DNA of 32,000 bases from Horticoccus luteus (lineage in GTDB: Bacteria; Verrucomicrobiota; Verrucomicrobiia; Opitutales; Opitutaceae), in contig NZ_CP080507.1 of NCBI RefSeq assembly GCF_019464535.1, positions 2,190,001 to 2,222,000 on the forward strand. Reading direction: 5' to 3'. The first letter of the stretch is position 1; every line of letters begins with the position of its first letter. Both the position numbers and the translations under genes were made by a program. Positions 2,244 through 16,450 of this stretch are shown here, piece after piece. The notes beneath the pieces are model-generated. The model worked only from the letters and a program-made list of their open reading frames with translations. It made no database searches and was not told the DNA's origin.

Positions 2244-2392
2244 CGCCAACGCCTTCCCGCGTCGCGCCGCCCGCGCCGCCCGCCTCCGCCCGCGTAAATG
2301 GTAACAAATCACGAATAACGTTCCTCCGCGCACGAAGCCCGCCTCCTCTCTCGACTCGCCGCCCGCCGTCCCCCACGGTCCGGGTCCGCGCC

Positions 2393-3208
2393 ATGTATCA
2401 GAGCTTTTATGGGTTTACGGAGATGCCGTTCAACATCACTCCGGACCCCAAATTCCTCTTCCTCAGCCCCACGCACCAAGAGGCCCTGCAACACCTCAAG
2501 TTCGGCGTGCAGGAGAAAAAAGGCTTCATCGTGCTCGTCGGCGAAGTCGGTTGCGGCAAAACCACTCTCTGCCGCCGGTTCCTCAACGAGCTCGATCCCG
2601 CGCACTTCGATACCGCCCTCATCCTCAACCCCCGCGTCACCGAAACGCAGATGTTGAAGGCGATCCTCACCGAACTCGGCGAAAGCAAACTCGCCCGTTC
2701 CCAAGTCGACCTCGTCGCCCAGATCAACGGCGTGCTCCTCGACCGCATCGCGCAAGGCCGCGACATCGTCCTCATCATCGACGAAGCCCAGAACCTCCAC
2801 CCGGACGTCCTCGAGCAAATCCGCCTCCTCTCCAATCTTGAGACCGACAAACAGAAGCTCCTGCAAATCGTCCTCATGGGCCAGCCCGAGCTCAAGACGG
2901 TCCTCTCCCGCACGGAACTCCGCCAGCTCCGCCAGCGCATCCTCGTTCACTACGAGTTGAAACCGCTCACGCTGGGCGACGTACACGCCTACATCCAGCA
3001 CCGCCTCACCCTCGCCGGCACCAGTGGCCGCCCCACGTTTACCCCCTGGGCCCTGCGCGCGATCTTCCGGCACAGCGGCGGCATTCCTCGCCTCATCAAT
3101 CATCTTTGCGACAAAGCCCTCCTCGCCGCCTACGTGCGCGACTCCGACCTCGTCAACTACTGGGACGCCCGCCGCGCCATCCGCGACGTCCGCAGCCTCA
3201 CCACCTGA
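2393..3208 (+). CDS. ExeA/GspA-like AAA ATPase (PEP-CTERM-locus type secretion ATPase)
   Basis: The N-terminus MYQSFYGFTEMPFNITPDPKFLFLSPTHQEAL, Walker A GEVGCGKTT, Walker B IVLIIDEAQNL and the LVLMGQPEL motif are typical of ExeA/GspA and the TIGR03015-like subfamily. Confidence 0.85.
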   Translation: MYQSFYGFTEMPFNITPDPKFLFLSPTHQEALQHLKFGVQEKKGFIVLVGEVGCGKTTLCRRFLNELDPAHFDTALILNPRVTETQMLKAILTELGESKLARSQVDLVAQINGVLLDRIAQGRDIVLIIDEAQNLHPDVLEQIRLLSNLETDKQKLLQIVLMGQPELKTVLSRTELRQLRQRILVHYELKPLTLGDVHAYIQHRLTLAGTSGRPTFTPWALRAIFRHSGGIPRLINHLCDKALLAAYVRDSDLVNYWDARRAIRDVRSLTT

Positions 3209-3251
3209 ATCCCGCTCCTCCCCGCTTCGCGTTACTCCCTCCACGCCCCCG

Positions 3252-4157
3252 ATGAGCCTCATCAACGACGCCCTCAAAAAAGCGCAACGCCAGCGCGCCC
3301 CCGATGCCGCGGGTGGCTCCGGCGCGTCCCCGGCGGGCGGCGTCGTCGCGAAGCGCTCGCAACCCCTCGCCGCCAAGTGGATCGTCCTTCTCGCCCTCGG
3401 CGGCGTCGCCCTGATCGTCCTCGTCGCCGTGTCCGTGACTCTATTCATTTTAAGCGACACCCCCGCGCCGCGCGTCGCCGCCAACGCGCCATCCGCCGCC
3501 CATCGTCCCGCCACCCCCTCGGTCCCTTCCACGTCCGCCTCCGGCCCTTCGTCATCCGCCATCCGTCCTCCGTCATCCGTCGTCGGTCTCCAGCCCTCCG
3601 CTCTCACGCCCGCATCCCCAGACGCCGCGCAACCCACCTCCGCCGTCCCCGCGCCCAGCGAAAGCCCCGCCCCTCCTGCCGCCAGCACCCCGCGCCCCTC
3701 CGCCGAAACCGCCGCGGTCGCCTCTCCCCGGTCCGTTCCTCCCTCTTCCGCCCTCACTCCGCCTTCAACCGCCTCCCGCTCTCCGTCGTCTGCCGTCAGC
3801 CCTCCGCCCGCCACCGTCAGCGCCGCGCTTTCCGAGCCACCCGCAGTCACCGCCACCCCTTCCGCCGTCAGCCCCGCGTCCGCGACGCTCCGCCCGCCCG
3901 CTCACGACGTCCGCGACGCGCCCGCGGTGAGCTTCGCGATTCCGCATCCCGACGAACGCATCATTGCTTACGTTGATCACCTGCGGGTCACCGGCATCCG
4001 CTCCTCGGGCGCCGACAGCAAAGTGCTCATGAACGACCGCGTGTACCGTGTGGGCGACATCGTGGACCGCGACCTCCAGTTGAAACTCGTAAAAGTCGCC
4101 CCCGAGCTCCTCACCTTCGAAGACCCCCGCGGCCTGACCTACACAAAAAACTTCTAG
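3252..4157 (+). CDS. GspB-like single-pass membrane protein with long Pro/Ser/Ala-rich linker
   Basis: ORF 3024..4157 trimmed to the ATG at 3252 (MSLINDALKKAQRQR, a typical ExeA-partner N-terminus). It has a TM helix WIVLLALGGVALIVLVAVSVTLFIL, a low-complexity linker, and a C-terminal RVTGIRSSG...VLMNDRVYRVGDIV...LKLVKVAPELLTFED domain resembling GspB_C. It lies 43 nt after the exeA-like stop. Confidence 0.6.
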   Translation: MSLINDALKKAQRQRAPDAAGGSGASPAGGVVAKRSQPLAAKWIVLLALGGVALIVLVAVSVTLFILSDTPAPRVAANAPSAAHRPATPSVPSTSASGPSSSAIRPPSSVVGLQPSALTPASPDAAQPTSAVPAPSESPAPPAASTPRPSAETAAVASPRSVPPSSALTPPSTASRSPSSAVSPPPATVSAALSEPPAVTATPSAVSPASATLRPPAHDVRDAPAVSFAIPHPDERIIAYVDHLRVTGIRSSGADSKVLMNDRVYRVGDIVDRDLQLKLVKVAPELLTFEDPRGLTYTKNF

Positions 4158-4170
4158 CCCCCGGCTGAAG

Positions 4171-4768
4171 CGTTCGACTAACGAATAACGATTAACGAAT
4201 TTCGATTTACGCCCCACCCCGCCATTCGTGTCTGTTCGTGTCCATTCGTGGTTAAAACAGGAGCATTCTACAGAAGGTAACGAAGGTAAGGAAGAAGCGC
4301 TCGGCCACGTCCGTTCGACTCACGAATAACGAGTAACGAACACCGATTCACCCGTCTGCCCATCTGTGTCCATCTGTGGTTAAAGAAAATGCCTTTTCGA
4401 CCGTCGCCACAGCTCACCCCGCCATTCGTGTCTGTTCGTGTCCATTCGTGGTTAAAACAGGAGCATTCTACAGAAGGTAAAAACGGTAATGAAGAAGCGC
4501 TCGGCCACGTGCGTTCGACTCACGAATAACGAGTAACGAACACCGATTCACGCATCTGCCCCCATCCGTGTTCATCTGTGTCCATCTGTGGTTAAAAAAA
4601 CGCCTTTCCAATCCTCGCCACAGAGTAAATCCCATACCTCTCCTCGGTGGATGGATTAACGAATAACGGTTAACGAATTTCGATTTACGCTCCTCCCCAC
4701 CCATTCGTGTACGTTCGTGTTCATTCGTGGTTAAAAATACTCTCTCCGGAAATTCGCGCCTCTTCGCG
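4171..4768 (+). repeat. Composite mosaic repeat locus 1 (two 200-bp tandem units plus a partial third)
   Basis: 4215-4414 and 4415-4622 align base for base apart from one extra decamer. Modules are CATTCGTG x3 + GGTTAAAA, TACAGAAGGTAACGAAGGTAAGG..., CACGAATAACGAGTAACG..., and CATCTGTG x2 + GGTTAAA. A 52-mer at 4269-4320 is identical to 8291-8342. Confidence 0.9.
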
Positions 4769-4855
4769 TGATGAGCGGGCCGCCCTCCCGTCGCTCACCC
4801 CGCACAAGATTCTGGTTTCCAGTCTCCCGCGCCAGCCCCATCCTCCGCCGCCACC

Positions 4856-6361
4856 ATGTCCGCTCCTGCCGCCCGCCTTCCTCGCCTCGTGGGTCAGGAT
4901 GAAACCAAACTCATCCGGCTGCACCCCCTCGAAAAACTTCTCCTCGCGGTCGTCGCCGCGCAGTTGGTGTTCTTGCCCTGGGCCGTCGGCGGCATGCGGT
5001 TGTGGGCGCAGTTCATCAGCCTCGGACTCAGCGCCGCCAGCCTCGCGCTGGCGCTGATGCCTCGTCACTACACCGATGAACACACGGGCGGCGAGGCGTT
5101 CACCCTCTATCCGCTCCGCCGCCTGCTGCGCTTTCCCCTCTTCTGGACCGGCCTGGTGTTCGCCGGCTACATCGTCATCGGTGCGCTCAACCCCGGCTGG
5201 CGCTACGAACACGACGGCGGGCGCTGGTGGATGCGCGAGATCCCCCGCATTTCCTGGCTGCCCCATGGCGTCACCGGCACGCCCTTCGACTGGGCGAGCC
5301 CGTGGCGGACCCTCATCATCTTCGGCGCGGCATTCCTGCTCGTTTGTGCGCTCTGGGTCGGCATCACCCGCCGTCGCTCGCTCCAGCTCCTCCTCCTCAT
5401 CCTCTGTATCAACGCCGTCCTGGTCGCCCTGCTCGCCATTACCATGCGAGCCACCGGCGCAACGAAACTCTATTGGACGTGGCCCAGCGCCAATCTTCCC
5501 TATGGACCGTTCGTCTATCGCAACCACGCCTCCGCCTGGCTCAACCTCATGATTGGAGCGACGCTCGCGCTCTCCGCGCTCTTCCACGAGCGCGCTCAAC
5601 GTGTCATGGCAAAGTCGAGCCCTGCTCCCCTGATCGCATTCGTCGCGGTCTTCCTCGGTGTGGTGGTGGCGGTCAGCCAGTCGCGCGGCGGCTTTATCGC
5701 GCTGCTCGTCTTCCTCGCGGCCGCCCTGGCCCTCGCCGGCGTGCGCCAACTTCGGCACCGGAGCACCTCCCGCATGCTGGCGATCGCCGCGCTCTTGGGC
5801 GCCGGCTTTATCGGCTTCGTTGCGCTCTCCTTCGATAGCTGGGGCGGCGCGCAAGCGTGGCAACGCTTCACGCGACTCTTCGAAGACCGTGACTCGTCCG
5901 TGACATCCCGCGAGTTGGCCACCCAGGCCACCATGGACATGTGGCGCGAAGCCCCGTGGTCCGGCGATGGCGCCGCTTCCTTCCGCTACGTTTTCCCTCT
6001 CTACCAGCAGCATTACCCTGACATTTACCAGCATAAGTCCGGTCGACAGACTATTCGCCAAGTCTGGGAGTTTGCGCACAACGACTGGGCGCAGATGCTC
6101 GCCGAATACGGTGTCATTGGCACCGGCATCGCCATCGCAGCTATCGCTTGGTGGCTGCTGGCCCTCCTCCGTCTGCGAGCCTGGCGTTATGCTCCGTCGC
6201 TCCTGCTCGTCTTCGCGGTCGGCATGACGCTCTTACATGCCCGCGGCGACTTCGTCCTGCACAATCCCGCCGTGCTGCTGAGCTTTGTCGCCGTCGCCGT
6301 CGTATCGCTTCGCCTCGCCGAATTCGCTCACGCCAGCGCCCGCCGCACCCGCTCCGCTTGA
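4856..6361 (+). CDS. O-antigen ligase / Wzy_C-domain polytopic membrane protein
   Basis: It contains many hydrophobic helices, a periplasmic-loop region, and the motif EFAHNDWAQMLAEYGVIGTGI typical of the O-antigen ligase (Wzy_C) family. Confidence 0.8.
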   Translation: MSAPAARLPRLVGQDETKLIRLHPLEKLLLAVVAAQLVFLPWAVGGMRLWAQFISLGLSAASLALALMPRHYTDEHTGGEAFTLYPLRRLLRFPLFWTGLVFAGYIVIGALNPGWRYEHDGGRWWMREIPRISWLPHGVTGTPFDWASPWRTLIIFGAAFLLVCALWVGITRRRSLQLLLLILCINAVLVALLAITMRATGATKLYWTWPSANLPYGPFVYRNHASAWLNLMIGATLALSALFHERAQRVMAKSSPAPLIAFVAVFLGVVVAVSQSRGGFIALLVFLAAALALAGVRQLRHRSTSRMLAIAALLGAGFIGFVALSFDSWGGAQAWQRFTRLFEDRDSSVTSRELATQATMDMWREAPWSGDGAASFRYVFPLYQQHYPDIYQHKSGRQTIRQVWEFAHNDWAQMLAEYGVIGTGIAIAAIAWWLLALLRLRAWRYAPSLLLVFAVGMTLLHARGDFVLHNPAVLLSFVAVAVVSLRLAEFAHASARRTRSA

Positions 6362-6368
6362 GCCCCCA

Positions 6369-6401
6369 ACGCATCCGCCACCTCGTCGGCGCGATGCGTT
6401 C
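6369..6401. terminator. Putative bidirectional hairpin between convergent genes
   Basis: aacgcatccgcc (6369-6380) pairs with ggcgcgatgcgtt (6389-6401): an 8-bp perfect outer stem plus a 4-bp inner stem with one bulge. No strong T-run follows, so this is only a candidate. Confidence 0.35.
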
Positions 6402-6469
6402 ACCTCCCGTTTGATCCCTGCCCTGTAGGCGGGATGCCCTCACCCCGCATCCGTCCTGCGCGCTAGTCG

Positions 6470-7990
6470 CTACTGTCCGCCCCGTTCCCCGACCAACGCC
6501 CGCCAAGCCGCCACGTGCCGGCTAAAGGTGAATGCTTGCTCCGCCAGCGCGCGCGCCCTGCCGCCCCGCTCCGCCGCATCGTCCGGCTCTCGCGCCGCCC
6601 CCCGAATGATCTCCGCCGCGCTCGCCACGTCGCCGGCCGGCACCGCCCAGCCCAACCCGTGTTCGCGCACCAGCCGCGCGCCTTCCGCGTCGAGGTCGCC
6701 CGTGAGCAGCAACGGCCGCCCCGCCGCGAAAATATTATACATCCGGCTCGGCACCGAGATCCCCGCCATCCCGGCCCGAAACGGCACCAGCATCACGTCC
6801 GCCGCCGCCAGCCAGTCATTCAACTCCGCCGGCGGACACGGCGGCGCGAGACAAACATTCGCCGCCCCACCCAACGCCGCGTCGACCTCCGCCCGCCCCA
6901 CGCCGCCCGCGTAAATGAGAAACCGAATCGACGCATCGCCGCGCAACGCCCGGGCGAGCGCGATCACCAACGCCCCATCGTGCGTCCGCCCCAACGTGCC
7001 GCCCACGCCGACCACCGTCTTCCCCTGCAACCCCCAACGCGACGTCACCGGCGACGCCTCCTTGGCCACAGCCCGCAACCCATCGACGTCCCCCCAATTA
7101 GGAATCACCACGATCCGCCCTCCACCGCCTCCCGCCTTGCCTCGTCCTCCTTCGCTTAATCTCACTCGCCCCACCTCCGTCGCGGAAGCCGTGACGCTGT
7201 CGTCCTCCCTTCCTCTCTCGACCGCAAAACCCGCTCCCTCCCCATCCCTCATCTCGCTCTTACTCTTAATCGTGCTCGTAATCGTCCCTCCCGCCGCTCC
7301 ACCCGCCGCCAGTTTGCGCGCGATCACGTCGCGCATATCCCGCCCCAGCACGACGATCTCATCGGCCATTTTGTAGCCGCCGCTGAACCCGCGATCGAGC
7401 TGCCGCAGCAGCCATCCTGGCCGCAGCCAACCCACCGCCGCAAAAACATCCGGATACACATCGTGCACCAGCACGATCACCCGCGCCCCGCGCCTCCGCG
7501 CCGCCCACACCACCGGCCACGGCAGCAACCGCGGGCTGGTCACCACCACCACGACGTCGCCCTGACGCAGATGAGTGAACGCCGCCCGCGTATAAGCGAA
7601 AGTCGTCGTCAGCCAGTTCAGCCCGAGCAACCACGCCCGCGACTTCGGAAACGTCGTGGCCCGCACCCGTCGCACAAGCACCCCCGGCACCTCCCTCGCC
7701 GGCCTAACCCCGACCGCCCCCACCCTTCCCAATCGTTCTCGTTCTCTTTCTCCCTCGACCGAGAATCCCGTCCGATATCCCTCCGCTCGGCACTCTTCGC
7801 CCGTAGCGGACGCCTTCAGACTTTCGTCCGCCATTCGACCTCCGCGCTCTGCCATCCGTCCTCCGTCGTCCTCCATCCGCCCTCCGTCGTCCGCCGTCCG
7901 CTCCCGCGCCAACGCCGTCGCGAGCTCCGTCACGACGCGCCCCGTCGCATCGTCCGGCCGGGCAAACACATCGCAGAAGAACCAAAGCAT
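6470..7990 (-). CDS. GT4 glycosyltransferase (WcaI-like) carrying two in-frame repeat insertions
   Basis: It is homologous along its length to the in-window paralog 20649..21836 (VIPNWGDVDG vs VIPNWADVEF, PSRMYNIFAAGRPLL vs PSKTYYSMAAGSALL, RARALAEQAF vs RARALAESQF) but is 506 aa versus 395 aa. Confidence 0.8.
   Translation of the reverse strand: MLWFFCDVFARPDDATGRVVTELATALARERTADDGGRMEDDGGRMAERGGRMADESLKASATGEECRAEGYRTGFSVEGERERERLGRVGAVGVRPAREVPGVLVRRVRATTFPKSRAWLLGLNWLTTTFAYTRAAFTHLRQGDVVVVVTSPRLLPWPVVWAARRRGARVIVLVHDVYPDVFAAVGWLRPGWLLRQLDRGFSGGYKMADEIVVLGRDMRDVIARKLAAGGAAGGTITSTIKSKSEMRDGEGAGFAVERGREDDSVTASATEVGRVRLSEGGRGKAGGGGGRIVVIPNWGDVDGLRAVAKEASPVTSRWGLQGKTVVGVGGTLGRTHDGALVIALARALRGDASIRFLIYAGGVGRAEVDAALGGAANVCLAPPCPPAELNDWLAAADVMLVPFRAGMAGISVPSRMYNIFAAGRPLLLTGDLDAEGARLVREHGLGWAVPAGDVASAAEIIRGAAREPDDAAERGGRARALAEQAFTFSRHVAAWRALVGERGGQ
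7118..7310. repeat. Intragenic repeat-derived insertion 2 in GT4
   Basis: It encodes AAGGAAGGTITSTIKSKSEMRDGEGAGFAVERGREDDSVTASATEVGRVRLSEGGRGKAGGGGG between ...VIARKL and RIVVIPNWGD. The DNA contains a hexamer-like cttactcttaatcgtgctcgtaatcg and a ccgtgac motif also seen in spacers. Confidence 0.7.
7715..7905. repeat. Intragenic repeat-derived insertion 1 in GT4 (11 in-phase C-rich heptads at 7828-7904)
   Basis: The heptads read ccgccat tcgacct ccgcgct ctgccat ccgtcct ccgtcgt cctccat ccgccct ccgtcgt ccgccgt ccgctcc. On the minus strand they are translated as DDGGRME DDGGRMA ERGGRMA, a 21-bp = 7-aa period. Confidence 0.8.
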
Positions 7991-8094
7991 GTTCCAGAGA
8001 GCAGACGCCGCCCCGCGCCTGTAAACCCAATTATTTCCTCCAGCAAATCACGGAGTAGATCCAAGCACCACCCGTTCCGCCTGCCCCCCAGTCG

Positions 8095-8582
8095 CCCAAC
8101 CGCCCATCCGTGTTAATCCGTCTTCATCTGTGGTCAAAAATGCCTTTCGATCCTCTCCACAGAGTAAATCCCATTCCTCTCCTCGGTGGACGGATTAACG
8201 AATAACAGTTAACGAATTTCGAATTACGCTCCGCCCCACCCATTCGTGTCTATTCGTGTACATTCGTGGGTAAAAAAAATAAGAGTATTTTACAGAAGGT
8301 AACGAAGGTAAGGAAGAAGCGCTCGGCCACGTCCGTTCGACTAACGAATAGCGATCAACGAACACCGATTCACGCGTCTACCCCCCATCCGTGTTCATCT
8401 GTGGTCATCTGTGGTTAAAAAATGCCTTTCCGACCCTCGCCACAGAGTAAATCCCATTCCTCTCCTCGGTGGATGGATTAACGAATAACGGTTAACGAAT
8501 TTCGATTCACGTTTCTCCCCACTCATTCGTGTCCATTCGTGGTTAAAAATACTCTGCACCGGAAATTCGCGCCGCTTCGCGT
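8095..8582 (+). repeat. Composite mosaic repeat locus 2 (about 1.6 copies of a roughly 285-bp unit), same family and orientation as locus 1
   Basis: It has the same module order as 4171-4768 and shares the terminal module GGTTAAAAATACTCTnnnCCGGAAATTCGCGCCnCTTCGCG (8541-8581 vs 4729-4768). Confidence 0.9.
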
Positions 8583-8650
8583 AATTCGCAACAGGCCGTC
8601 CTTCCCTCCGCTTCCTCTGCGACGTCCTGTAAAATAGGCCTGCGCTCGGT

Positions 8651-8713
8651 CGCCTGCCGCCTGCCCTCCGCCGTCCGCCCTCCGTCGTCCGCCGTCCATC
8701 CTCCGCCCTCAGA
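8651..8713 (+). repeat. C-rich heptad tract (9 in-phase units)
   Basis: The units read cgcctgc cgcctgc cctccgc cgtccgc cctccgt cgtccgc cgtccat cctccgc cctcaga. The tract is preceded by a CTCTGCGACGTCCTGTAAAATA module at about 8608-8636. Confidence 0.8.
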
Positions 8714-8743
8714 CTCTCCCCCCCACCACCGCGCCCCGCGCGG

Positions 8744-10606
8744 TCACTCCAAATACGGCGTATACTCCGGCACGAACTCCCGCAGCAGTTGCTTCACCTG
8801 CGCCGGCTCCAACTGGTGCAGCGTCGTGCTCACCTCCAGAAACCGCGCCTCCGCCACCGAAAAATCCCCGCCATTCCCCACGAACCGCATGATCCGCGTG
8901 TGCTGCGTCGGCTGGTGACTCTCATCATGGTGCCGCAGCTCCTCGAAAAGCTTTTCGCCCGGCTTCAACCCCGTGATCTGGATCTCTATATCATCGCCCA
9001 CCTTCAACCCGCTCAACTCGATCATCTGCCGCGCCAGATCGATGATCTTCACCGGCTGACCCATGTCCAAAACGCAGATATCGCCCCCCTTGCCCTGTAC
9101 CGTCGCCTGCAGCACGAGGCCCACTGCCTCCGGGATCGTCATGAAATAACGCGTCACGTCCGGATGCGTCACCGTGATCGGACCGCCCTTGTCGATCTGA
9201 CGCCGGAAAATCGGGATCACGCTCCCTGACGACCCGAGCACGTTGCCAAACCGCACCGCCAGAAACTTCGTCGCCGGATACCGCCGCTGCACCGCGAGCA
9301 ATTGCAGCTCCGCCAACCGCTTCGTCGCACCCATCACGCTCGTCGGGTTGATCGCCTTGTCGGTCGAGATCAGCACAAACGACCGCGTCTCGTGCGCCCC
9401 GGCGAGCGACGCCAGTTCGCGCGTCCCCACCGCGTTGTTGCGCATCGCCTCCGCCGGCTGCCGTTCCATCAGGAACACATGCTTGTGCGCCGCCGCGTGA
9501 AACACCACCGCCGGCCGGTAACGCGTGAAAATATAATCCATCCGCGCGCGATCCAGGATGTCCGCCACCAAGGGCACCGCGACCGTCGCATGGCCCAGCT
9601 CGTTCAACTCCTGTTCGATCAGGAAAAGACTCCCCTCCGATTGCTCCACCATTAGCAGTTGCCGCGGCGCGAGCGCGGCGATCTGCCGGCAGATTTCACT
9701 GCCGATGCTCCCGCCCGACCCCGTCACCATCACCACCTCTCCCTGCACCAGATGACGGATCGCCTCCGCATCGAGCGCCACCGGATCGCGCCCCAGCAAA
9801 TCCTCCACCTGCACCGGCCGGATGCGGCTCGCCCGCACGCGACCCGACGCCAGTTCCGCCATCGATGGCATCGTCTCCACCTTCAACCCCGCCGCCGTCA
9901 TCGCCAGCACGACCTCGCGCACCCGCTTGGCCGTCGCCGTCGGCATCGCGATCACCGCCTTGGTGATTTCATGCTGTTGCAGATAACGCTCGACGGTCTC
10001 CGGCACGCCCACCACCCGCACGCCATGCAACGTCTTGCCATGCTTCGTCCGGTCGTCGTCGAAAAACACCACCGGCCGAAACCCTCGCGAGGGATGCGAA
10101 ATAAATTCGTTGGCCAGCGCCGCCCCCGCATCGCCCGCCCCGATGATCGCAATCCGTTCCTTCACCGCACCCGTCGTTCGGGTGGACGCAAACCGCTCCC
10201 GCGTGATCCGCGCGCTCAACCGCAATCCACACACCCCCGCGATCGCCAGCATGTAGTCCGCCAGCAAGACCCCGCGCGGGATCGTGAAGCCGTTCAACTG
10301 GAGCACGTGCGGGATTAACAACAAGACGCTTACCACCGTGAGCGCCAGCACCACGCGGGTCAGATCGGGGATGCTGAAATACGTCAGCACACTCCCCAGT
10401 TGCCGCGCCCCGATCAGGCCCACCATCTGGAGGCCCACCACGATCGCGATCCACTCGGTGCGAATCTCCTGGTGTAGCAACGGCACCGCGAAATCGAACC
10501 GCAGTTCAAACGCCAGGTAAAACGCCGCCGTCAACGTCGCCAGATAAGCGACCGCCAGCATCAACACCCGTTGATTGCGGGAAAAATTGAGATCGAGATG
10601 AGCCAT
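8744..10606 (-). CDS. Membrane-anchored polysaccharide biosynthesis protein, CapD/PglF/WbpM-like NDP-sugar 4,6-dehydratase
   Basis: It has N-terminal TM helices, two Rossmann motifs (IIGAGDAGAAL and VTGSGGSIGSE), and the strings HAAAHKHV, STDKAINPTSVMGATKR and RFGNVLGSSGSVIP typical of this family. Confidence 0.9.
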   Translation of the reverse strand: MAHLDLNFSRNQRVLMLAVAYLATLTAAFYLAFELRFDFAVPLLHQEIRTEWIAIVVGLQMVGLIGARQLGSVLTYFSIPDLTRVVLALTVVSVLLLIPHVLQLNGFTIPRGVLLADYMLAIAGVCGLRLSARITRERFASTRTTGAVKERIAIIGAGDAGAALANEFISHPSRGFRPVVFFDDDRTKHGKTLHGVRVVGVPETVERYLQQHEITKAVIAMPTATAKRVREVVLAMTAAGLKVETMPSMAELASGRVRASRIRPVQVEDLLGRDPVALDAEAIRHLVQGEVVMVTGSGGSIGSEICRQIAALAPRQLLMVEQSEGSLFLIEQELNELGHATVAVPLVADILDRARMDYIFTRYRPAVVFHAAAHKHVFLMERQPAEAMRNNAVGTRELASLAGAHETRSFVLISTDKAINPTSVMGATKRLAELQLLAVQRRYPATKFLAVRFGNVLGSSGSVIPIFRRQIDKGGPITVTHPDVTRYFMTIPEAVGLVLQATVQGKGGDICVLDMGQPVKIIDLARQMIELSGLKVGDDIEIQITGLKPGEKLFEELRHHDESHQPTQHTRIMRFVGNGGDFSVAEARFLEVSTTLHQLEPAQVKQLLREFVPEYTPYLE

Positions 10607-10659
10607 GTTCTTCTTTGAAATTTTTCTGCCTCAGCGTGGAAAACCGCGGCGCGCGTGCT

Positions 10660-10886
10660 CGGTCATCCGCCATTCGGCCGTTCGTTTAACCACAGATGTA
10701 CACAGATTAACACGGATGGTGGACATGCACGGTTTGAATGGCTCGTTCTTGGTTTTCACTTCGTTCACTTCTGTGAGAAAACGGGATTTACCGATAACCT
10801 GAGGCAGGAAGACTTGTTGAACCACGAATGCACACAAATTTACACGAATGGGCGGAACGCGGTTATTCGATGATCGTTATTCGTTA
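10660..10886 (-). repeat. Inverted-orientation copies of the mosaic modules
   Basis: ttaaccacagatgtacacagattaacacggatgg, cttcgttcacttctgtg, aaccacgaatgcacacaaatttacacgaatgg and cggttattcgatgatcgttattcgttaacc are reverse complements of modules seen at 4215-4690. Confidence 0.75.
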
Positions 10887-10893
10887 ACCAAAC

Positions 10894-11220
10894 AACCACG
10901 GCAGAAGTGATTGTTTAAACCTGCGTCAGGATTCGTGCCCATTCGTGTTTATTCGTGGTTAAAAAATTGGCCGTTGCACCGGCTCAGAGTGTTCTTCCGT
11001 GACCTCGGGTTGGGCTCTCCGTGACCTCTGTGGCAAAGGTCGGAATGCCTGGAAGCGGAGCTTAACCACGGCAGAGGTGATTGTTTAAACCTGCGTTCGG
11101 ATTCGTGCCCATTCGTGTTTATTCGTGGTTAAAAAATTGGCCGTTGCACCGGCTCAGAGTGTTCTTCCGTGACCTCGGGATGGGCTCTCCGTGACCTCTG
11201 TGGCGAAGGTCGGAACGTCT
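10894..11220 (+). repeat. 170-bp tandem duplication (copy A 10894-11050, copy B 11064-11220)
   Basis: My hand alignment finds 7 mismatches over 157 aligned bases. Copy B contains the last roughly 22 codons and the stop of the sugar transferase gene. Copy A keeps a ghost of the same ORF end (FATEVTESPTRGHGRTL*). Confidence 0.9.
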
Positions 11221-11879
11221 GATGCCACGGGTTTGAATTCCGGCATCGTGGCGTCGCCCGCGGCGGAAATGCCTTCGCGACGCAGCACCTTGTAAATCGT
11301 CAGCGCGAGGATGCGCACATCAAGCCCGATCGACCGCGTTTCGACATAGCGTACGTCGCATTCGAATTTCTGCTCCCAGCCCAGCGCATTGCGCCCGCTG
11401 ATCTGCGCGAGCCCCGTCAACCCCGGCGGCACCTCATGTCGCCGCGCCTGCCGCGCGCTGTAGCGCGGCAGATAGTCGACGAGCAACGGCCGCGGACCCA
11501 CGAGACTCATCTCGCCGCGCAGCACATTGATCAATTCCGGCAGCTCATCGAGGGAAGTCGCGCGCAGCCAGCGGCCAAACCGCGTGAGCCGCATGGCATC
11601 GGGCAGCAGACGCCCCTCGGCATCGCGCGCACTCGTCATCGTGCGAAACTTGATCAGCTCGAAGATCGCCGCATTCCGGCCTGGACGCCGCTGACGAAAC
11701 AGTACCGGTGAGCCGAGGTTGATGCGCACGAGCAAGCCCACGACCGCGAGCACCGGCACCCAAACCGGCGCCGACAGCACGACCAAGGTCAGATCGAATC
11801 CGCGTTTCAAAAGCACAGGAGGGTCATTCAACAGCCCACCGCCGTCCCGGGTCAATGCGAACCGCGAGCCGGTTGGCAC
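11154..11879 (-). CDS. Undecaprenyl-phosphate sugar phosphotransferase (bacterial sugar transferase, PglC/WbaP C-terminal type)
   Basis: LKRGFDLTLVVLSAPVWVPVLAVVGLLV...GSPVLFRQRRPGRN...FELIKFRTM...DELPELINVLRGEMSLVGPRP is the canonical PF02397 signature. Confidence 0.9.
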   Translation of the reverse strand: MPTGSRFALTRDGGGLLNDPPVLLKRGFDLTLVVLSAPVWVPVLAVVGLLVRINLGSPVLFRQRRPGRNAAIFELIKFRTMTSARDAEGRLLPDAMRLTRFGRWLRATSLDELPELINVLRGEMSLVGPRPLLVDYLPRYSARQARRHEVPPGLTGLAQISGRNALGWEQKFECDVRYVETRSIGLDVRILALTIYKVLRREGISAAGDATMPEFKPVASDVPTFATEVTESPSRGHGRTL

Positions 11880-11880
11880 G

Positions 11881-11922
11881 CGATTCGATCTGCGTTATTC
11901 GTTACCCGCTATTCGGGCTTCG
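11881..11922 (-). repeat. Short inverted AT-type heptad tract (6 in-phase units NNNTTCG)
   Basis: The units read cgattcg atctgcg ttattcg ttacccg ctattcg ggcttcg, the reverse complement of the CGAATNN type. The tract overlaps the stop and 3-prime end of the four-helix-bundle gene. Confidence 0.6.
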
Positions 11923-12319
11923 CGGTACCGGGCTTCCCGTCCGTCACATGGGTCCGCTTCAAATAGCTGATATACCCATTAATCACCTGCAACGCGCGTT
12001 CAACTTTCTGCCGCCCCTGGCTGATTAAGGATTCCGAAATCAAATCCTCATCGCGGGCGGTAATCAGATGATCGAGCACCTCCGTACACGAACCGCGCGC
12101 ATAGCTGCAGAATTTCGAGTTATCGAGATAATGATACCGCCCGTAGCCCTCTGCAATATTCGCGGTGACAGAACGAGCTGCACGCAAAACCTGATCGCCT
12201 AAACGATACCGCTCTTCGTGGGGCAAGACAGGAAGTACATTGCGATAAACGAACAAACGCAGCTCCCGGCCCGCCTTCCAGCAATCGAGATCCTCAAAAC
12301 TTCGAATCGGTGTACTCAT
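11909..12319 (-). CDS. Four-helix-bundle protein (23S rRNA intervening-sequence protein family, TIGR02436-like)
   Basis: FEDLDCWKAGRELRLFVYR...LGDQVLRAARSVTANIAEGYGRYHYLDNSKFCSYARGSCTEVLDHL is the characteristic family pattern. The gene looks less GC-rich than its neighbours. Confidence 0.9.
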   Translation of the reverse strand: MSTPIRSFEDLDCWKAGRELRLFVYRNVLPVLPHEERYRLGDQVLRAARSVTANIAEGYGRYHYLDNSKFCSYARGSCTEVLDHLITARDEDLISESLISQGRQKVERALQVINGYISYLKRTHVTDGKPGTAKPE

Positions 12320-12330
12320 AGGAGGAGACG

Positions 12331-12475
12331 AACAACGCTTAACGATTAACGCTTAACAACCAACAACGATTAACCACAGCAACGAATGACGAGTAACGCC
12401 CAACGAATAACGAATAACGATTAACGATTAACGACAGCAACGATTAACGATCAACGCTTAACGAATAACGATTTC
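12331..12475 (+). repeat. AT-type heptad tract (AACGNNT units, about 20 units with some phase breaks)
   Basis: ...aacgaat aacgaat aacgatt aacgatt aacgaca... was read directly. Its last units encode the aminotransferase C-terminus (VKSLFVKR) and its stop on the minus strand. Confidence 0.85.
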
Positions 12476-14037
12476 ACCCCCGCCACCACCCGCTCCAAAT
12501 CCGCCCGCGTGAGATTCGAACCCGACGGCAGACACAGCCCGCGCGCGAACAAATCATCCGCCACCTCGCCGCCAAACGTGTCGCAGCCCGCAAACACCGG
12601 CTGCTGGTGCATCGGCTTCCACACCGGCCGGGCCTCGATGTTCTCCTTCAGCAGCGCCTCGCGCAACGCTTCGCGGTCGCACCCAAACTTCGCAGGATCG
12701 ACCGTGATGCACGTCAGCCACCGCGTGCAGCGTCCGAACGCCGCCTCCGGCATGAATTCGATGCCCGGCAGATCGGCGAACGCCGCTTGATAAAACGCGC
12801 AATTCGCCCGCCGGGCATTCACCCGATCCGCGAGCACGCGCAGTTGTCCGCGTCCGATGGCCGCGAGCACATTGCTCATGCGGTAATTGAAGCCGATTTC
12901 GGAATGTTGATAGTGCGGCGCCGGATCGCGCGCCTGCGTGGCGAGAAACCGCGCCTTGTCGATCAACGCCTTGTCCGCCGACACCAACATTCCCCCGCCC
13001 GACGTCGTGATGATCTTGTTCCCGTTGAAGGAAAAAATCCCCAGCCGCCCCACCGTCCCCGGCGCAATCGGTTCCCGCACCGCGGCCGGAGCCCCGGATA
13101 ACGAATCACGAGTAACGGATAACGATTTCCTCCCATCAGATAACGCCCCCCCCGCCGCGTGCGCCGCAGGCGTTATATGCGGCCCGTCCTCCGCCGTCCG
13201 ATGGTCGCCCTCCGTCATCAGCCGTCCGTCCTCCGTCCGCCGTCCGCCCTCCGTCATCAGCCGTCCGTCCTCCGTCCGCCGTCCGCCCTCCGTCGTCCGC
13301 CCTCCGTCGTCCGCCGCGCCTGCGTCCCCGTCCCCGGATAACGGATCACGAGTAACGGATAACGGCAATTTACGATAGTAAATTGCCCCCAACGCCTCCG
13401 CCGCATCCTCGATCAAAGGTACGCCATACTGCGCGCACAGCCCCGCGATCGCGTCGAGATCCGCGCTCTGCCCGTAAAGATGCACCAGTATCACGGCCTT
13501 GGGCAGACGCCCCTTCGCCGCGCGATCCTTCAACGCCTCCTCCAGCCGCGCCGGATCCATATTCCAGCTCGTGCGATCGCTATCGATGAACACCGGCCGC
13601 CCGCCCTCGTAAGCGATGGGATTGACGCTCGCGCTGAACGTCAGCGTCGAGACAAATACCTCGTCTCCCCGCTGCAGCCCGATCAAGCGCAACGCCAAGT
13701 GCAACGCGGCCGTTCCAGACGACAACGCCGCCGCATACATCGGCGCGCCAGCGGCCCCGAATAACGAATCACGAGTAACGGAAAACGATCCCCCCCCCGT
13801 CCGTCCTCCGCCCTCCGCCGTCCGCCCCGCGCCATCCGTCGCCTGCCCTCCGCCCTCCGCCGTCCGCCCCGCGCCAGCGGACAACGGAGCACGAATAACG
13901 TCGACAAATTCGCTCTCGAATTTGTCGACGTGCGGCCCGAGCGGCGCGATCCAGTTGGTCGCGAACGCGTCCTGGACGAGCGACAGCTCATCCGGACCCA
14001 TGTGAGGGGAAGAAAGGTGAATGCGTGGTTTGGTCAC
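12451..14037 (-). CDS. DegT/DnrJ/EryC1/StrS-family PLP-dependent sugar aminotransferase with two in-frame repeat insertions
   Basis: The N-terminus IHLSSPHMGPDELSLVQDAFATNWIAPLGPHVDKFESEF, plus SSGTAALHLAL, EDAAEALGA, the PLP-lysine motif FSFNGNKIITTSGGGMLV and YNYRMSNVLAA-like FNYRMSNVLAAIG, identify the family. At 528 aa it is longer than the roughly 370-400 aa I recall as typical. Confidence 0.85.
   Translation of the reverse strand: MTKPRIHLSSPHMGPDELSLVQDAFATNWIAPLGPHVDKFESEFVDVIRAPLSAGAGRTAEGGGQATDGAGRTAEGGGRTGGGSFSVTRDSLFGAAGAPMYAAALSSGTAALHLALRLIGLQRGDEVFVSTLTFSASVNPIAYEGGRPVFIDSDRTSWNMDPARLEEALKDRAAKGRLPKAVILVHLYGQSADLDAIAGLCAQYGVPLIEDAAEALGAIYYRKLPLSVTRDPLSGDGDAGAADDGGRTTEGGRRTEDGRLMTEGGRRTEDGRLMTEGDHRTAEDGPHITPAAHAAGGALSDGRKSLSVTRDSLSGAPAAVREPIAPGTVGRLGIFSFNGNKIITTSGGGMLVSADKALIDKARFLATQARDPAPHYQHSEIGFNYRMSNVLAAIGRGQLRVLADRVNARRANCAFYQAAFADLPGIEFMPEAAFGRCTRWLTCITVDPAKFGCDREALREALLKENIEARPVWKPMHQQPVFAGCDTFGGEVADDLFARGLCLPSGSNLTRADLERVVAGVKSLFVKR
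13092..13364. repeat. Intragenic insertion B in the aminotransferase, bounded by 33-bp direct repeats
   Basis: CCCCGGATAACGAATCACGAGTAACGGATAACG at 13092-13124 matches 13332-13364 at 32/33 positions, offset exactly 240 bp. Inside is a perfect 39-bp tandem duplication, 13206-13244 and 13245-13283. Confidence 0.9.
13756..13900. repeat. Intragenic insertion A in the aminotransferase
   Basis: ccccgaataacgaatcacgagtaacggaaaacg is followed by C-rich heptads and then ggacaacggagcacgaataacg. A 29-bp exact repeat at 13806-13834 and 13848-13876 is spaced 42 bp apart. Confidence 0.85.
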
Positions 14038-14039
14038 GG

Positions 14040-14632
14040 TAAAGAGGTGAAGCGTTATTCGGTTCGGGTTATTGGATATTCAGAAGACCAAGACGAGTGG
14101 AATTCCGGCCGATCAGCGACAAGCTTCGCCCTGCGGCTTCCGTCAGTCAGCCGCCCGCCCTCCGTGCCCCACGAATAACCGATAACGATCACCGGCACGC
14201 CCCGCCCTCCGCTGTCCGTGCCCCACGAGTAACGGATAACGAGTAACACCGCGCTGCGCGGTCGCCTCCGCCCTCAGTCGTCTGCCATCCGCCCTCCGGC
14301 ATCCGCCCTCCGCCGTCCGTGCCCCACGAGTAACGGATAACGATTAACACCGCGCTGCGCGGTCGCCTCCGCCCTCCGCTTCCTCCGCGCCCTCCTGTAA
14401 AAATGTTTTGCTCGCCCCGGTCGCCGCCTAACAACGAATAACGATTAACGGCTAACGAATAACGATTAACGAGTAACGAATAACGAAGAACGAATAACGA
14501 TTAACGATTAACGAATAACGAATAACGATTAACGGCTAACGAATAACGATTAACGCCGCGCTGCGCGCTCCGCCGTCTGCCCTCCGTCCTCCGCCATCCG
14601 CCATCCGCCGTCCGGCGTCCGCCCTCCGCGCC
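14040..14632 (+). repeat. Large compound repeat spacer; core is 28 consecutive in-phase heptads at 14437-14632
   Basis: 17 AT-type units (aataacg/attaacg/gctaacg/agtaacg, 14437-14555) run without a phase break into 11 C-rich units (ccgcgct ... ccgcgcc, 14556-14632). The tract ends at the base before the vapC stop. Upstream are roughly 101-bp higher-order repeats (14203-14275 and 14303-14376). Confidence 0.9.
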
Positions 14633-15037
14633 TCAACGGCTCCCCTCTCTCGCTGGCTGACCGATCAACTCCACCGCGTCATCCTTGATGCCTGCGTCGA
14701 ACGTCGCCAGCCGCAGCCCGTTTTCACGCGCCAGTTGCGTGAGATACGCATCCGACGTTTTTACCGCCGTCGAAGCCCAGCGTGGCAGACGCGGCGATGG
14801 CGCAACCGCAATGAATCCTCCCACGTGCTCCTTCAACAAGGATAGGGCCTCTGACGCTTGCGCCAGACTGTAGCCAAACACCTGCATCGACACCCGCAAA
14901 AACCCAAGTTCAGTATGGGCGCAGGTCCAGAGATGGGAACGCCCTGCCTGCTTGGCCCAAGTGTGAAATGCCGCGTGATGCGATGAATCGCTGTGTTCCC
15001 ACGCGAGAAGGGCATTCACATCGAGGAGGTATTTCAC
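14633..15037 (-). CDS. vapC: PIN-domain ribonuclease toxin, VapC family
   Basis: MKYLLDVNALLAWEHSDSSHHAAFHTW...TELGFLRV...SDAYLTQLARENGLRLATFD matches the VapC (TIGR00028-like) pattern. It overlaps the upstream antitoxin ORF by 4 bp. Confidence 0.85.
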   Translation of the reverse strand: MKYLLDVNALLAWEHSDSSHHAAFHTWAKQAGRSHLWTCAHTELGFLRVSMQVFGYSLAQASEALSLLKEHVGGFIAVAPSPRLPRWASTAVKTSDAYLTQLARENGLRLATFDAGIKDDAVELIGQPAREGSR

Positions 15038-15276
15038 GGGAAATCAGCGAGCGCCGCCCGGATTTCCTCTTCCGTCACCACGCGGCCGGTGCCTGCTGCG
15101 TTGTGGGGCAAACCCGAAACCGGATGCTTCCGACGAACAATTTTAGTCGCCTGCCGTTCAGTTTCACCGAGTGCCGCCTTCCGGAGGTAGGCGGAAACCG
15201 ACGACTTAGCGGCCCGGGCCTTGTCCCGAATCCGCTGTGCCGACGCGGGATCCACTTTGAAACTGATAACGGGCAT
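15034..15276 (-). CDS. vapB: Antitoxin (RHH/CopG-like, VapB-type)
   Basis: This 80-aa ORF overlaps vapC by 4 bp. The N-terminal MPVISFKVDPASAQRIRDKARAAKSSVSAYLRKAAL is a ribbon-helix-helix-like segment. Confidence 0.7.
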   Translation of the reverse strand: MPVISFKVDPASAQRIRDKARAAKSSVSAYLRKAALGETERQATKIVRRKHPVSGLPHNAAGTGRVVTEEEIRAALADFP

Positions 15277-15319
15277 GGTATTACTTTATTACCCAATGTC
15301 TCCCGACGCGTCAAGCCGC

Positions 15320-15745
15320 CCCCCGCTTCCTCCGCTACCGCCTGCAAAATTCACTTCACGAAACACCTGATCGAATAACGAATAACGATTAACGGCCCGC
15401 CCTCCGCCGTCAGTCCTCCGTCATCAGCCGTCAGACGTCCGTCATCCGCCCTCCGTCCTCCGTCATCCGCCATCCGCCGTCCGCCCTCCGCTCTCCGCCC
15501 TCCGCGCTCTCCGCGACCTCCTGTAAAATTCACTTCAGGAACGCCTGATCGAATAACGAATAACGAGTAACGGATAACGAGTAAACCGCGCTGCGCGGTC
15601 TCCGTCCTCCGCCCTCTCCGCTACCGCCTGCAAAATTTACTTCAGGAAACGCCTGATCGAATAACGAATAACGAGTAACGGATAACGATTAACGCCGCGT
15701 TGCGCGCTCCGTCCTCCGTCCTCCGTCATCCGTCGTCTGCCTTCC
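15320..15745 (+). repeat. Compound repeat spacer: three copies of a CTGCAAAATTCACTTCAGGAAACGCCTGATCGAATAACGAATAACGAnTAACGG unit alternating with C-rich heptads
   Basis: Unit copies lie at about 15325-15395, 15500-15600 and 15612-15706. 19 in-phase heptads run from 15374 to 15506. The final tract encodes the EpsI C-terminal tail and stop. Confidence 0.9.
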
Positions 15746-16450
15746 GACGTCTGGCGCGCTTCCCGCCCCCAGCCCAATCGCCCGCAGACCGCTCAGAACG
15801 CTGTCGAACGCCGGATCGCCTTTGATCTTCTCCAACGGCTGGTCGCTGGCGAGACGCACAAAATACTGCGCCGGAGGCGCAACGAACATTTGCTTAAATG
15901 CATCGCGCAACCAGCGCCACGCGGAAGGCACTTGGTTGAATCGATCGCCAAAATCGTAAAGATCGTTACCCACGAGCTGCCAATAGACCACGTACTGCAC
16001 GGTGCCGCCTGCTGCCGTGAACCGCCGAAATTCCCCGGGGCGGGTGACGCCTTCGCGATCAGCCACCGCAACGCCATGCTGAATTTCATCACACTGCCAG
16101 CCGGCCGAAGTCCAGCAGCGGTCCGGCGTATGCGAGGCCACCAGTTGCGTCGGCATTTTACCCGCATCCCAATAGGCGATATATAATGTGAAGTGATCTC
16201 CGGTTGTCGTCGTGTATTGACGAAAGAGCACGTCATCGTAACGCAGCGTCTTTTCGACGGCACCTTGCACCGCCTCTGTTTGGCCGAGAGGCACCTCCAC
16301 CGAGGTCCAACCATCCCCTCGAGTCGCAAACATTTCATCAAGACGCCTCGTCTTGCTGTCGGACGTCGCAGGCGACTGCTTCGGCAGGCACTGCACCACG
16401 ACCGCCGCGATCAGCCCCAAAGCGGTGAACAGCAGCAAAAGCTTTTTCAT
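15689..16450 (-). CDS. epsI: EpsI-family (exosortase-associated) protein
   Basis: It has an N-terminal anchor MKKLLLLFTALGLIAAVVV, followed by ...YIAYWDAGKMPTQLVASHTPDRCWTSAGWQC..., which resembles the EpsI H-x-P-x-x-C...GW core. I chose the start at 16450 because it forms an ATGA overlap with the HAD stop (16447). Confidence 0.7.
   Translation of the reverse strand: MKKLLLLFTALGLIAAVVVQCLPKQSPATSDSKTRRLDEMFATRGDGWTSVEVPLGQTEAVQGAVEKTLRYDDVLFRQYTTTTGDHFTLYIAYWDAGKMPTQLVASHTPDRCWTSAGWQCDEIQHGVAVADREGVTRPGEFRRFTAAGGTVQYVVYWQLVGNDLYDFGDRFNQVPSAWRWLRDAFKQMFVAPPAQYFVRLASDQPLEKIKGDPAFDSVLSGLRAIGLGAGSAPDVGRQTTDDGGRRTERATRR

Follow-up and report, generated by a model that had tools for sequence, protein, structure and literature searches.

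The 32-kb window analysed here (32,000 nucleotides; contig NZ_CP080507.1, positions 2,190,001 to 2,222,000; window coordinates are used below) comes from the soil bacterium Horticoccus luteus (Opitutaceae, Verrucomicrobiota) and includes a gene for a PglE/EpsN-type sugar aminotransferase of the DegT/DnrJ/EryC1/StrS family, in which two segments of heptanucleotide-repeat DNA, called insert A and insert B, lie in frame (Table 1). An earlier reading of the sequence (the original prediction) had singled out insert B as intergenic spacer-type repeat DNA kept in frame between the catalytic motifs of the enzyme. The coding sequence is annotated as intact in both GenBank (528 aa) and RefSeq (516 aa, beginning at Met13), and the longer version is more likely to be correct because the upstream GTG (VTKPRIHLSSPHMG..., 14002-14037) is where the alignments with homologues and with PglE begin. 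The best protein match, at 100 % identity, is an H. luteus aminotransferase of this family. The product matches Pfam PF01041 (E 2e-85; 287.6 bits, where the cutoff is 19.8) and a sequence comparison with the PDB places it closest to Campylobacter jejuni PglE (1O61/1O62/1O69 and 4ZTC, E 7e-78), with perosamine synthases next. The counterpart of PglE K184, the residue mutated in 4ZTC, is K341 in the motif FSFNGNK (13015-13035); D211, the acidic residue that binds the ring of the pyridoxal phosphate (PLP) cofactor, is part of the invariant EDAAEALG motif (EDAAEALGA at 13384-13410), and all of the family-invariant residues are present. The window contains no other DegT gene.

The genes downstream encode a PglC-like Bac_transf protein and a PglF-like Polysacc_synt_2 dehydratase, other neighbours include a 23S-rRNA-IVS-type four-helix protein and, further along, many glycosyltransferases, and orthologous loci keep the gene order, with EpsI upstream. 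Because of these neighbours and the retained order, the gene is assigned to an exopolysaccharide or glycan pathway, and the genomic context fits the predicted activity on a nucleotide-4-keto sugar.

The limits of insert B were set from two measures. The conserved anchors EDAAEALG and SFNGNK are separated by 118 aa in H. luteus versus 17 aa in uninserted orthologues, and residues 223 and 325 of the H. luteus protein align with the contiguous residues 167 and 168 of PglE. Hence, the insert is 101 codons long rather than the approximately 90 first estimated. The catalytic motifs on both sides are indeed intact, as had been proposed. Read in the coding sense, it consists of a perfect hairpin, a 33-bp block of TAACGGA, TAACGAA or TAACGAT units (AT-type, or TAACGRA-type, heptads), an array of about 20 G-rich heptads (CGGAGGG or CGGACGG), a palindrome around a G8 run, and a second 33-bp block. 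In the hairpin, conserved host codons (G-A-I-Y) form the left arm, and the right arm repeats them in inverted form and codes for (R)KLP. Both 33-bp blocks proved to be as described originally, with 32 of 33 positions identical and starts 240 bp apart, and when up to three mismatches are allowed the window contains three copies of the 33-mer (starting at 13092, 13332 and 13755), all within the aminotransferase gene, where none is expected by chance (100 dinucleotide shuffles). The 39-bp tandem duplication reported for the G-rich array (13206-13244 and 13245-13283) is also exact, and the period-39 match runs on without error to 13294, giving about 2.3 copies of a unit that is a non-integer number of heptads; Tandem Repeats Finder returned periods of 7, 14 and 39 for this array. 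The three sense frames across the insert contain 0, 5 and 4 stop codons (frames 0, +1 and +2, respectively), so that the only open frame is that of the host gene. When the DNA from one 33-bp repeat to the other is deleted in silico, exactly 240 bp is lost and the frame remains open, with a ...AIYYRKLPLSVTRDSLSGAPAAVREPIAPGT... junction, in agreement with the suggestion that recombination between them could excise 80 codons cleanly.

Insert A, which was defined by comparison with PglE and uninserted orthologues, follows the same plan: a hairpin, a degenerate AT-type block, G-rich heptads with super-periods of 21 and 42 bp, a G9 run (C9 on the plus strand, 13790-13798) and the third copy of the 33-bp block (13755-13787). 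Only two perfect stem-loops with a stem of at least 10 bp were found in the window, and they are those at the junctions of inserts A and B. Likewise, the only G/C homopolymers of 8 or more are the C8 run at 13146-13153 and the C9 run of insert A, both within inserts. All of the heptad types have an ACGG(A/C) core and, because of this common core, an AT-type block and the G-type heptads that follow it on one strand form an imperfect inverted repeat. A scan of the whole window against Rfam returned no family, and a scan for promoters and terminators found nothing notable.

Table 1. Features of the H. luteus aminotransferase gene and of the adjoining spacers (window coordinates)
Feature	Coordinates	Strand	Basis
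Host gene, PglE/EpsN-type DegT/DnrJ/EryC1/StrS sugar aminotransferase	12451..14037	-	ORF (open reading frame) of 528 aa from GTG
PLP Schiff-base lysine codon, K341 (PglE K184)	13015..13017	-	PglE alignment
Insert B, 303 bp, 101 codons, residues 222-322	13072..13374	-	Anchor spacing, PglE alignment, pLDDT (predicted local distance difference test)
33-bp TAACGRA-type heptad block, gene-distal, read as SLSVTRDSLSG	13092..13124	-	Direct repeat of block 13332-13364
Internal palindrome ATAACGCC...GGCGTTAT around C8 run (G8 in sense) at 13146-13153	13140..13176	.	
G-rich (sense strand) CGGAGGG/CGGACGG heptad array, includes 39-bp tandem	13184..13317	-	Tandem Repeats Finder
33-bp TAACGRA-type heptad block, gene-proximal, read as PLSVTRDPLSG	13332..13364	-	Repeat comparison
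Perfect hairpin at 5' junction of insert B (coding sense), GGCAATTTAC-tatc-GTAAATTGCC	13364..13387	.	Stem-loop search
Insert A, 147 bp, 49 codons, residues 49-97	13747..13893	-	Comparison with PglE and uninserted orthologues
Perfect hairpin at 5' junction of insert A, 15-bp stem, 4-nt loop, encodes VDKFESEFVD	13898..13931	.	
Downstream TAACGRA-type heptad array, overlaps last codons and stop codon of the gene	12320..12475	-	
Upstream intergenic spacer: G-heptad array, GC hairpin (ACCGCGCAGCGCGGT), TAACGRA block, GGGGCAC	14148..14632	-	

The claim that the insert is made of the material that fills the surrounding spacers was borne out by blastn, which matched insert DNA to intergenic repeats of the window many times and in the same orientation. 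The spacers on both sides of the gene contain the same parts as the inserts, in the same order and orientation, running from a G-heptad array through the GC hairpin and a TAACGRA block to GGGGCAC, and the heptad arrays give Tandem Repeats Finder periods of 7, 14 and 21. The repeats are strongly polar (86 occurrences of TAACG versus 17 of CGTTA, and 76 of CCTCCG versus 3 of CGGAGG), being G-rich on the sense strand of a gene cluster that lies entirely on the minus strand.

Among orthologous loci, both the presence of the inserts and their length vary. Among the 120 closest homologues, 101 have an insert at site B and 72 of those have one at site A as well; none has an insert at site A alone, 19 have neither, and alignment of the core revealed no further large insertion site. 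The extra residues number from 5 to 123 per insert. The loci of homologues in the GTDB genomes of cyanobacteria, Chloroflexi, Myxococcota, Planctomycetota and Bacteroidota are 1100-1120 bp long and have no extra segment, and the same is true of other Verrucomicrobiota (Chthoniobacter L024 and Opitutaceae L013). The scan of genome contigs was saturated by such non-verrucomicrobial homologues and served as a negative control. Nearly all of the best 150 representatives from a search of 1.84 billion cluster representatives match an uninserted query contiguously, and a search of 5.8 billion proteins with the insert-B peptide found no significant match. In the sequences compared, the insert is absent outside this verrucomicrobial clade, and the conserved equivalent in unrelated taxa that would have identified the segment as an ordinary part of the family is not there.

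The inserts of the orthologues are hypervariable low-complexity peptides that translate lineage-specific repeats, and several classes can be recognized: GGRTAEDGG-type peptides encoded by G-rich heptads, PPSSALRP-type peptides encoded by the same heptads inverted, PLSVTRDSLSG-type and TNNEERITNN-type peptides from the two orientations of TAACGRA heptads, QEGTERTE...SVSSVSSC from an inverted pair of GAACGGA-like units, and KKAQEAQNR-type units. In many orthologues the insert is an inverted heptad array. Where DNA was retrieved, that of the inserts matches intergenic arrays of the same locus (H. luteus, L082, L083, L084 and L087), and the L086 locus has an uninserted gene and no arrays at all. 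Sites A and B hold the same repeat class in 38 of 72 genomes versus 17.5 expected, though these counts ignore phylogeny. Frame use is uneven, the AT-type block being read as the hydrophilic LSVTRD-type peptide 25 times and in the alternative open RYPLLVIRY-type frame three times, and hydrophobic residues make up 15 % of the pooled site-B inserts versus 32 % of the whole proteins.

Comparison of close relatives indicates how quickly the inserts change. Outside the inserts, the homologues P0005 and P0046 share about 96 % identity; nearly all of their differences fall within the inserts, which cannot be aligned at either site. Homology stops sharply at ...GGAGCGATTTAYT and restarts at GCCGGGAACC.... 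In P0009, a G-heptad array together with a KAQ unit is nested within a QEGTE element. The clade to which this homologue belongs (P0009, P0018, P0021 and P0025; L085, 3703-3960) has two to three tandem units of 39 aa (117 bp) at site B, and these include the host codons for AEALGATYF, which shows unequal recombination or slippage across the junction between host and insert. In Didemnitutus (L001, 3145-3671) a HicA-type toxin-antitoxin cassette and a 144-bp duplication of the 5' end of the gene lie exactly at site A. Because of this replacement, nesting, tandem duplication and cassette acquisition, the two positions are recombinationally active.

The palindrome at the site-A junction is also found in some relatives. 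L088 and L089 share this palindrome, which encodes VDKFESEFVD, at the same codons, and site A of L082 has another inverted repeat, of 9 bp. Overall, palindromes with a stem of at least 9 bp were found at site A in four of nine inserted loci versus two of about 75 uninserted loci, three of the four being one sequence.

In an AlphaFold2 model built on an alignment of 88 sequences, the core (278 residues with a pLDDT of at least 90) superposes on PglE, perosamine synthase and ArnB with Foldseek target-normalized TM (template modelling) scores of 0.88-0.93 and has the architecture of fold-type I aminotransferases. Residues 58-92 in insert A and 239-313 in insert B have pLDDT values below 50 and no secondary structure. 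Insert B forms the turn of a β-hairpin (strands 219-223 and 321-324) that separates the strand binding the PLP ring from the strand bearing the lysine. Even in otherwise uninserted relatives site B ranges naturally from 17 to 25 residues, and longer loops occur in a distant subfamily, which fits a permissive loop. The model thus presents both inserts as disordered loops, with the fold and the catalytic residues untouched. The alignment with PglE and the structure prediction, both suggested at the outset as checks, agree that the segment interrupts what is contiguous in PglE and would be a disordered loop in a hairpin turn. The large low-complexity loop originally envisaged stands in this model, and that the enzyme carrying it is made is an inference.

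The best reading of these data is that the inserts are tolerated repeat DNA with a fast turnover rather than a new protein domain. It appears quite probable that intergenic heptad-repeat DNA, selfish or neutral, has lodged in two permissive loops, where it is renewed in place and filtered by selection; the insert itself is most likely without function. The source of both inserts would be the heptanucleotide repeats found genome-wide in this lineage, namely the TAACGRA-type and CGGAGGG/CGGACGG-type units and short hairpins. A rare seeding event would have placed heptads into a structurally permissive loop. The junction hairpins, in each of which host codons are paired with an inverted copy of themselves, make synthesis by fold-back or template switching the probable route. 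Later turnover in place would be rapid and would involve replication slippage, nested insertion, and exchange with the many similar arrays of the genome by ectopic recombination or gene conversion. Only those variants that have a length divisible by three, lack stop codons and encode a hydrophilic peptide would then survive purifying selection on the enzyme, and the insert would be translated as a disordered, hydrophilic loop. The original prediction made much of the fact that the exact duplications are divisible by three even though the unit is 7 bp. The arithmetic is correct, but the 39-bp and 240-bp periods are attributed here to this selective filter and are its expected remainder, not a property of the repeat.

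Several observations weigh against this interpretation. The 120 homologues were drawn with an insert-bearing query from called ORFs, and frameshifted or inactivated copies would therefore be under-sampled. Conservation alone is the ground for taking the inserted enzyme to be translated and functional. The restriction to two sites in over 100 orthologues is attributed to ancestry and turnover in place, to which a site-specific insertion process is the alternative. As to microhomology between the host sequence and the heptads, when the coding sequences of uninserted orthologues were scored with a position weight matrix for the heptads, the TRGRMG segment beside site B ranked 2-4, and insert-free positions scored higher. 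The G8 and G9 runs inside the inserts could have a function in phase variation. Finally, the idea that the parts make up a hairpin module is only partly supported and was not adopted, because RNA and DNA folding, scored against shuffled sequences on both strands, gives uneven results: the structure of insert A is strong (z = -5.0), that of insert B is weak (z = -2.0), and several intergenic arrays have none (z about 0).

The possible involvement of the homopolymers raises the question of whether the inserts are a contingency device, in which slippage by one base at G8 or G9, or by one 7-bp unit, would turn the aminotransferase on and off and the exopolysaccharide with it. In Campylobacter, Neisseria and Haemophilus, capsule and lipooligosaccharide genes vary in phase through short repeats and through poly-G tracts of at least 8, and the H. 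luteus gene resembles these loci in that it belongs to an exopolysaccharide or glycan locus, its G8 and G9 tracts are perfect and lie in a coding region, the repeat unit is not a multiple of three, and no G/C run of this length exists elsewhere in the window. However, G/C runs in the inserts of the orthologues do not exceed 7, which means that the tracts are not conserved. The heptads, being imperfect, are poor substrates for slippage, and the sole perfect tandem, at 39 bp, preserves the frame. H. luteus is represented by one genome. We consider a contingency device distinctly unlikely. Active mobility is another explanation, and the sharp-edged replacement of whole inserts between close relatives speaks for it. 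In this case, a heptad-hairpin family, mobilized by some enzyme, would repeatedly enter hairpin-forming sequences at the two sites, and the differences between relatives would be independent insertions or exchanges of cassettes. The perfect hairpins precisely at both junctions, the occurrence of the site-A palindrome in three lineages and of another inverted repeat in L082, the enrichment of such stems in inserted loci, the nested elements and the HicA cassette of L001 would all be in keeping with it. Against this, terminal inverted repeats, a target-site duplication and an element of constant length or sequence are all lacking, the window showed neither a transposase nor a RAYT-like gene, common ancestry may account for three of the four palindromes, and slippage and recombination can give the same patterns. 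Such an element is, in our judgement, improbable. A bolder version, in which the hairpin modules of the Opitutaceae are actively mobile and replace each other, by a structure-specific mechanism, at hairpin 'landing pads' in essential enzyme genes, is unlikely though worth stating: if true, mobile modules would be an ongoing natural supply of new disordered protein segments, and the G8/G9 tracts of H. luteus could make the aminotransferase gene phase-variable.

Two further explanations would deny the inserts a place in a working enzyme. Bypassing of the insert, or its removal as an intron or intein, would leave a mature enzyme without the segment. Translational bypass of T4 gene 60 has a hairpin at the take-off site, of which the stable hairpin at the 5' junction is reminiscent, and the 33-bp direct repeats flank most of the insert. 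But frame conservation and avoidance of stop codons would then be needless, and we regard removal after transcription or translation as very improbable. An intein or self-splicing intron was rejected as the identity of the segment, since the window has no match to an Rfam intron or other RNA family, no intein/Hint Pfam domain was found, and the junctions lack the Cys/Ser and His-Asn residues required. A decaying pseudogene, or an artefact of assembly, might be suspected wherever low-complexity repeats, which are error-prone in assemblies, make two large disruptions in one gene. Here the 528-aa ORF is intact and keeps every family-invariant residue, the sole open frame through the insert is that of the host, more than 100 orthologues from independent assemblies have in-frame inserts at the same sites, and the genome is a single contig of 4.32 Mb in which two pipelines called the coding sequence and no other DegT gene accompanies it in the window. 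We give this explanation almost no credence.

The preferred reading, tolerated and rapidly replaced intergenic repeat DNA, has precedents. Its novelty here lies in its scale, in the confinement to two fixed sites and in how fast the inserts are replaced; the principle was already known. The closest are the Rickettsia palindromic elements (RPEs; Ogata et al. 2000, summarized in PMC10969869). They insert in frame into metabolic genes that are unrelated to one another, at positions where neither the fold nor the function of the host protein is judged to suffer, and each is a discrete element of about 150 bp whose sequence and encoded peptide are conserved. As with the RPEs, a lineage-specific, dispersed repeat family occupies intergenic DNA and, in frame, also the genes of conserved enzymes. 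The H. luteus-type inserts differ in being modular 7-bp arrays of variable length and content that recur at two sites and are replaced wholesale, and there is no sequence relationship. Membership of the RPEs was rejected: there is no discrete element, the lengths ranging from 5 to 123 residues and the inserts of close relatives being unalignable. The original prediction called such DNA inside a housekeeping-type fold unusual; given the number of inserted orthologues, the H. luteus case is not a one-off, and in-frame insertions of repeats or of transposable elements have precedents such as the RPEs.

Heptanucleotide repeats are the most abundant class of long simple sequence repeats (LSSRs) in many bacterial genomes (Mrazek 2007, as cited in PMC4679880). 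Among them, the TAACTGA repeats of Beggiatoaceae, Cyanobacteria and Bacteroidetes (MacGregor 2015) are found in ORFs mostly at the periphery of the protein, and have stop codons in all frames in one orientation and encode LSV...-type peptides in the other (PMC4679880). The H. luteus arrays are likewise strongly intergenic and strand-polar, and their TAACGGA and TAACGAA units, one base removed from TAACTGA, give TAA stops in three frames in one orientation and LSV... peptides in the other; a 7-bp unit is shared also with the heptamers of the cyanobacterial STRR (short tandemly repeated repetitive) sequences. In contrast, the unit is not TAACTGA, the arrays are set between catalytic residues midway through a conserved fold, and G-rich heptads, as a second type, and hairpins accompany them. 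G-rich heptamers (GGGNATC and GGGGAYT) are known from Xanthomonas and Nostoc, on the sense strand after stop codons (Rehm et al. 2015, PMC4692102). They resemble the H. luteus arrays in being G-rich 7-bp tandem arrays of variable copy number between co-oriented genes, on the sense strand just past stop codons, and differ in that the H. luteus unit is CGGAGGG/CGGACGG, with runs of G2-G3.

In-frame fusions have been documented for bacterial transposable elements of the miniature inverted-repeat kind (MITEs), namely ERIC, BOX and the Coxiella QMITE1 (PMC10969869, PMC5896051). Like the H. luteus inserts, these are short, non-autonomous repeats tolerated in ORFs, and nested elements are a point of likeness with the small repeats of Nostoc. 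The latter, small dispersed repeats, are reportedly nested in heptamer arrays, as Elhai et al. are said to have described in 2008. Insert B differs from a MITE in being bounded by 33-bp repeats that are direct, not inverted, and no cognate transposase was seen in the window. A MITE was rejected as the identity of the inserts because neither terminal inverted repeats nor a target-site duplication is visible at the junctions. In the literature searched, no report of such repeats in Verrucomicrobiota, or of their in-frame insertion there, was found.

If this interpretation is correct, 'selfish DNA inside protein-coding genes' would extend from Rickettsia to free-living Verrucomicrobiota and to simple heptanucleotide repeats. 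More than 100 orthologues of one enzyme that carry different, rapidly replaced peptides of non-coding origin in exactly two loops amount to a natural experiment, and the set should be useful for studying the tolerance of a fold to insertions, the origin of disordered segments from non-coding DNA, and the movement and recombination of repeat arrays. In practical terms, inserts of this kind lengthen proteins, disrupt alignments and the assignment of domains, and could pass for frameshifts or new domains when genomes are annotated.

Judging from the coding sequences compared, in-frame repeat inserts extend beyond the aminotransferase gene. The GT4 glycosyltransferase encoded in the same window (ORF 6470-7990, minus strand) bears an in-frame G-heptad segment, RERTADDGGRMEDDGGRMAERGGRMADES, at 7824-7901, which a gap in the Pfam profile alone places between the N-terminal helix and the remainder of the GT4 domain; a PDB sequence search with this glycosyltransferase gave no match. 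The PglF-like dehydratase of L084 (gene 5078-7096) has 53 additional residues encoded by an in-frame G-heptad insert (6417-6470) relative to that of L086 (4799-6664), and inserts in the same gene are seen in L083 (6870-6919) and L081 (7133-7178). In other loci, heptad arrays overlap the ends of Bac_transf genes. A putative ORF of 515 aa in the H. luteus window (2309-3856, minus strand, with overlapping plus-strand ORFs), for which there is no Pfam match, includes heptad-encoded low-complexity stretches at 3534-3581 and 3736-3767, and may be either a real gene or an artefact of repeats that lack stop codons.

The heptad arrays are confined to the first half of the window (3500-16000) and have a single orientation: the plus strand carries the C-rich units and TAACG. 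At 17-32 kb, where glycosyltransferase genes form a tightly packed operon, there are none. With all genes on one strand, the polarity of the arrays may follow either transcription or replication. Beside the aminotransferase gene, a VapBC-like PIN+RHH pair (14633-15276) sits between heptad arrays, as does the 23S-rRNA-IVS/bAvd-like four-helix protein (11909-12319), and the arrays may be hotspots for the insertion of cassettes. Other spacers (4215-4580, 8100-8420 and 10690-11215) contain a different repeat family, consisting of 10-bp CATTCGTGT/CCATCTGTGT units and of GAAGGTAAC units, which are themselves part of 200-bp and 170-bp tandem duplications. A scan of metagenomes with the 18-mer CGTTATCCGTTACTCGTG revealed no new case of an insert within a gene and recovered 14 loci, mostly intergenic heptad arrays in organisms of ~50 % GC, and from this recurrence it was concluded that the AT-type heptad is widespread beyond H. 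luteus. In six of these metagenome contigs (L090, L091, L094, L095, L096 and L102) the 18-mer has a conserved intergenic setting, where it lies at the end of TAACGRA-type heptads and upstream of one and the same conserved sequence.

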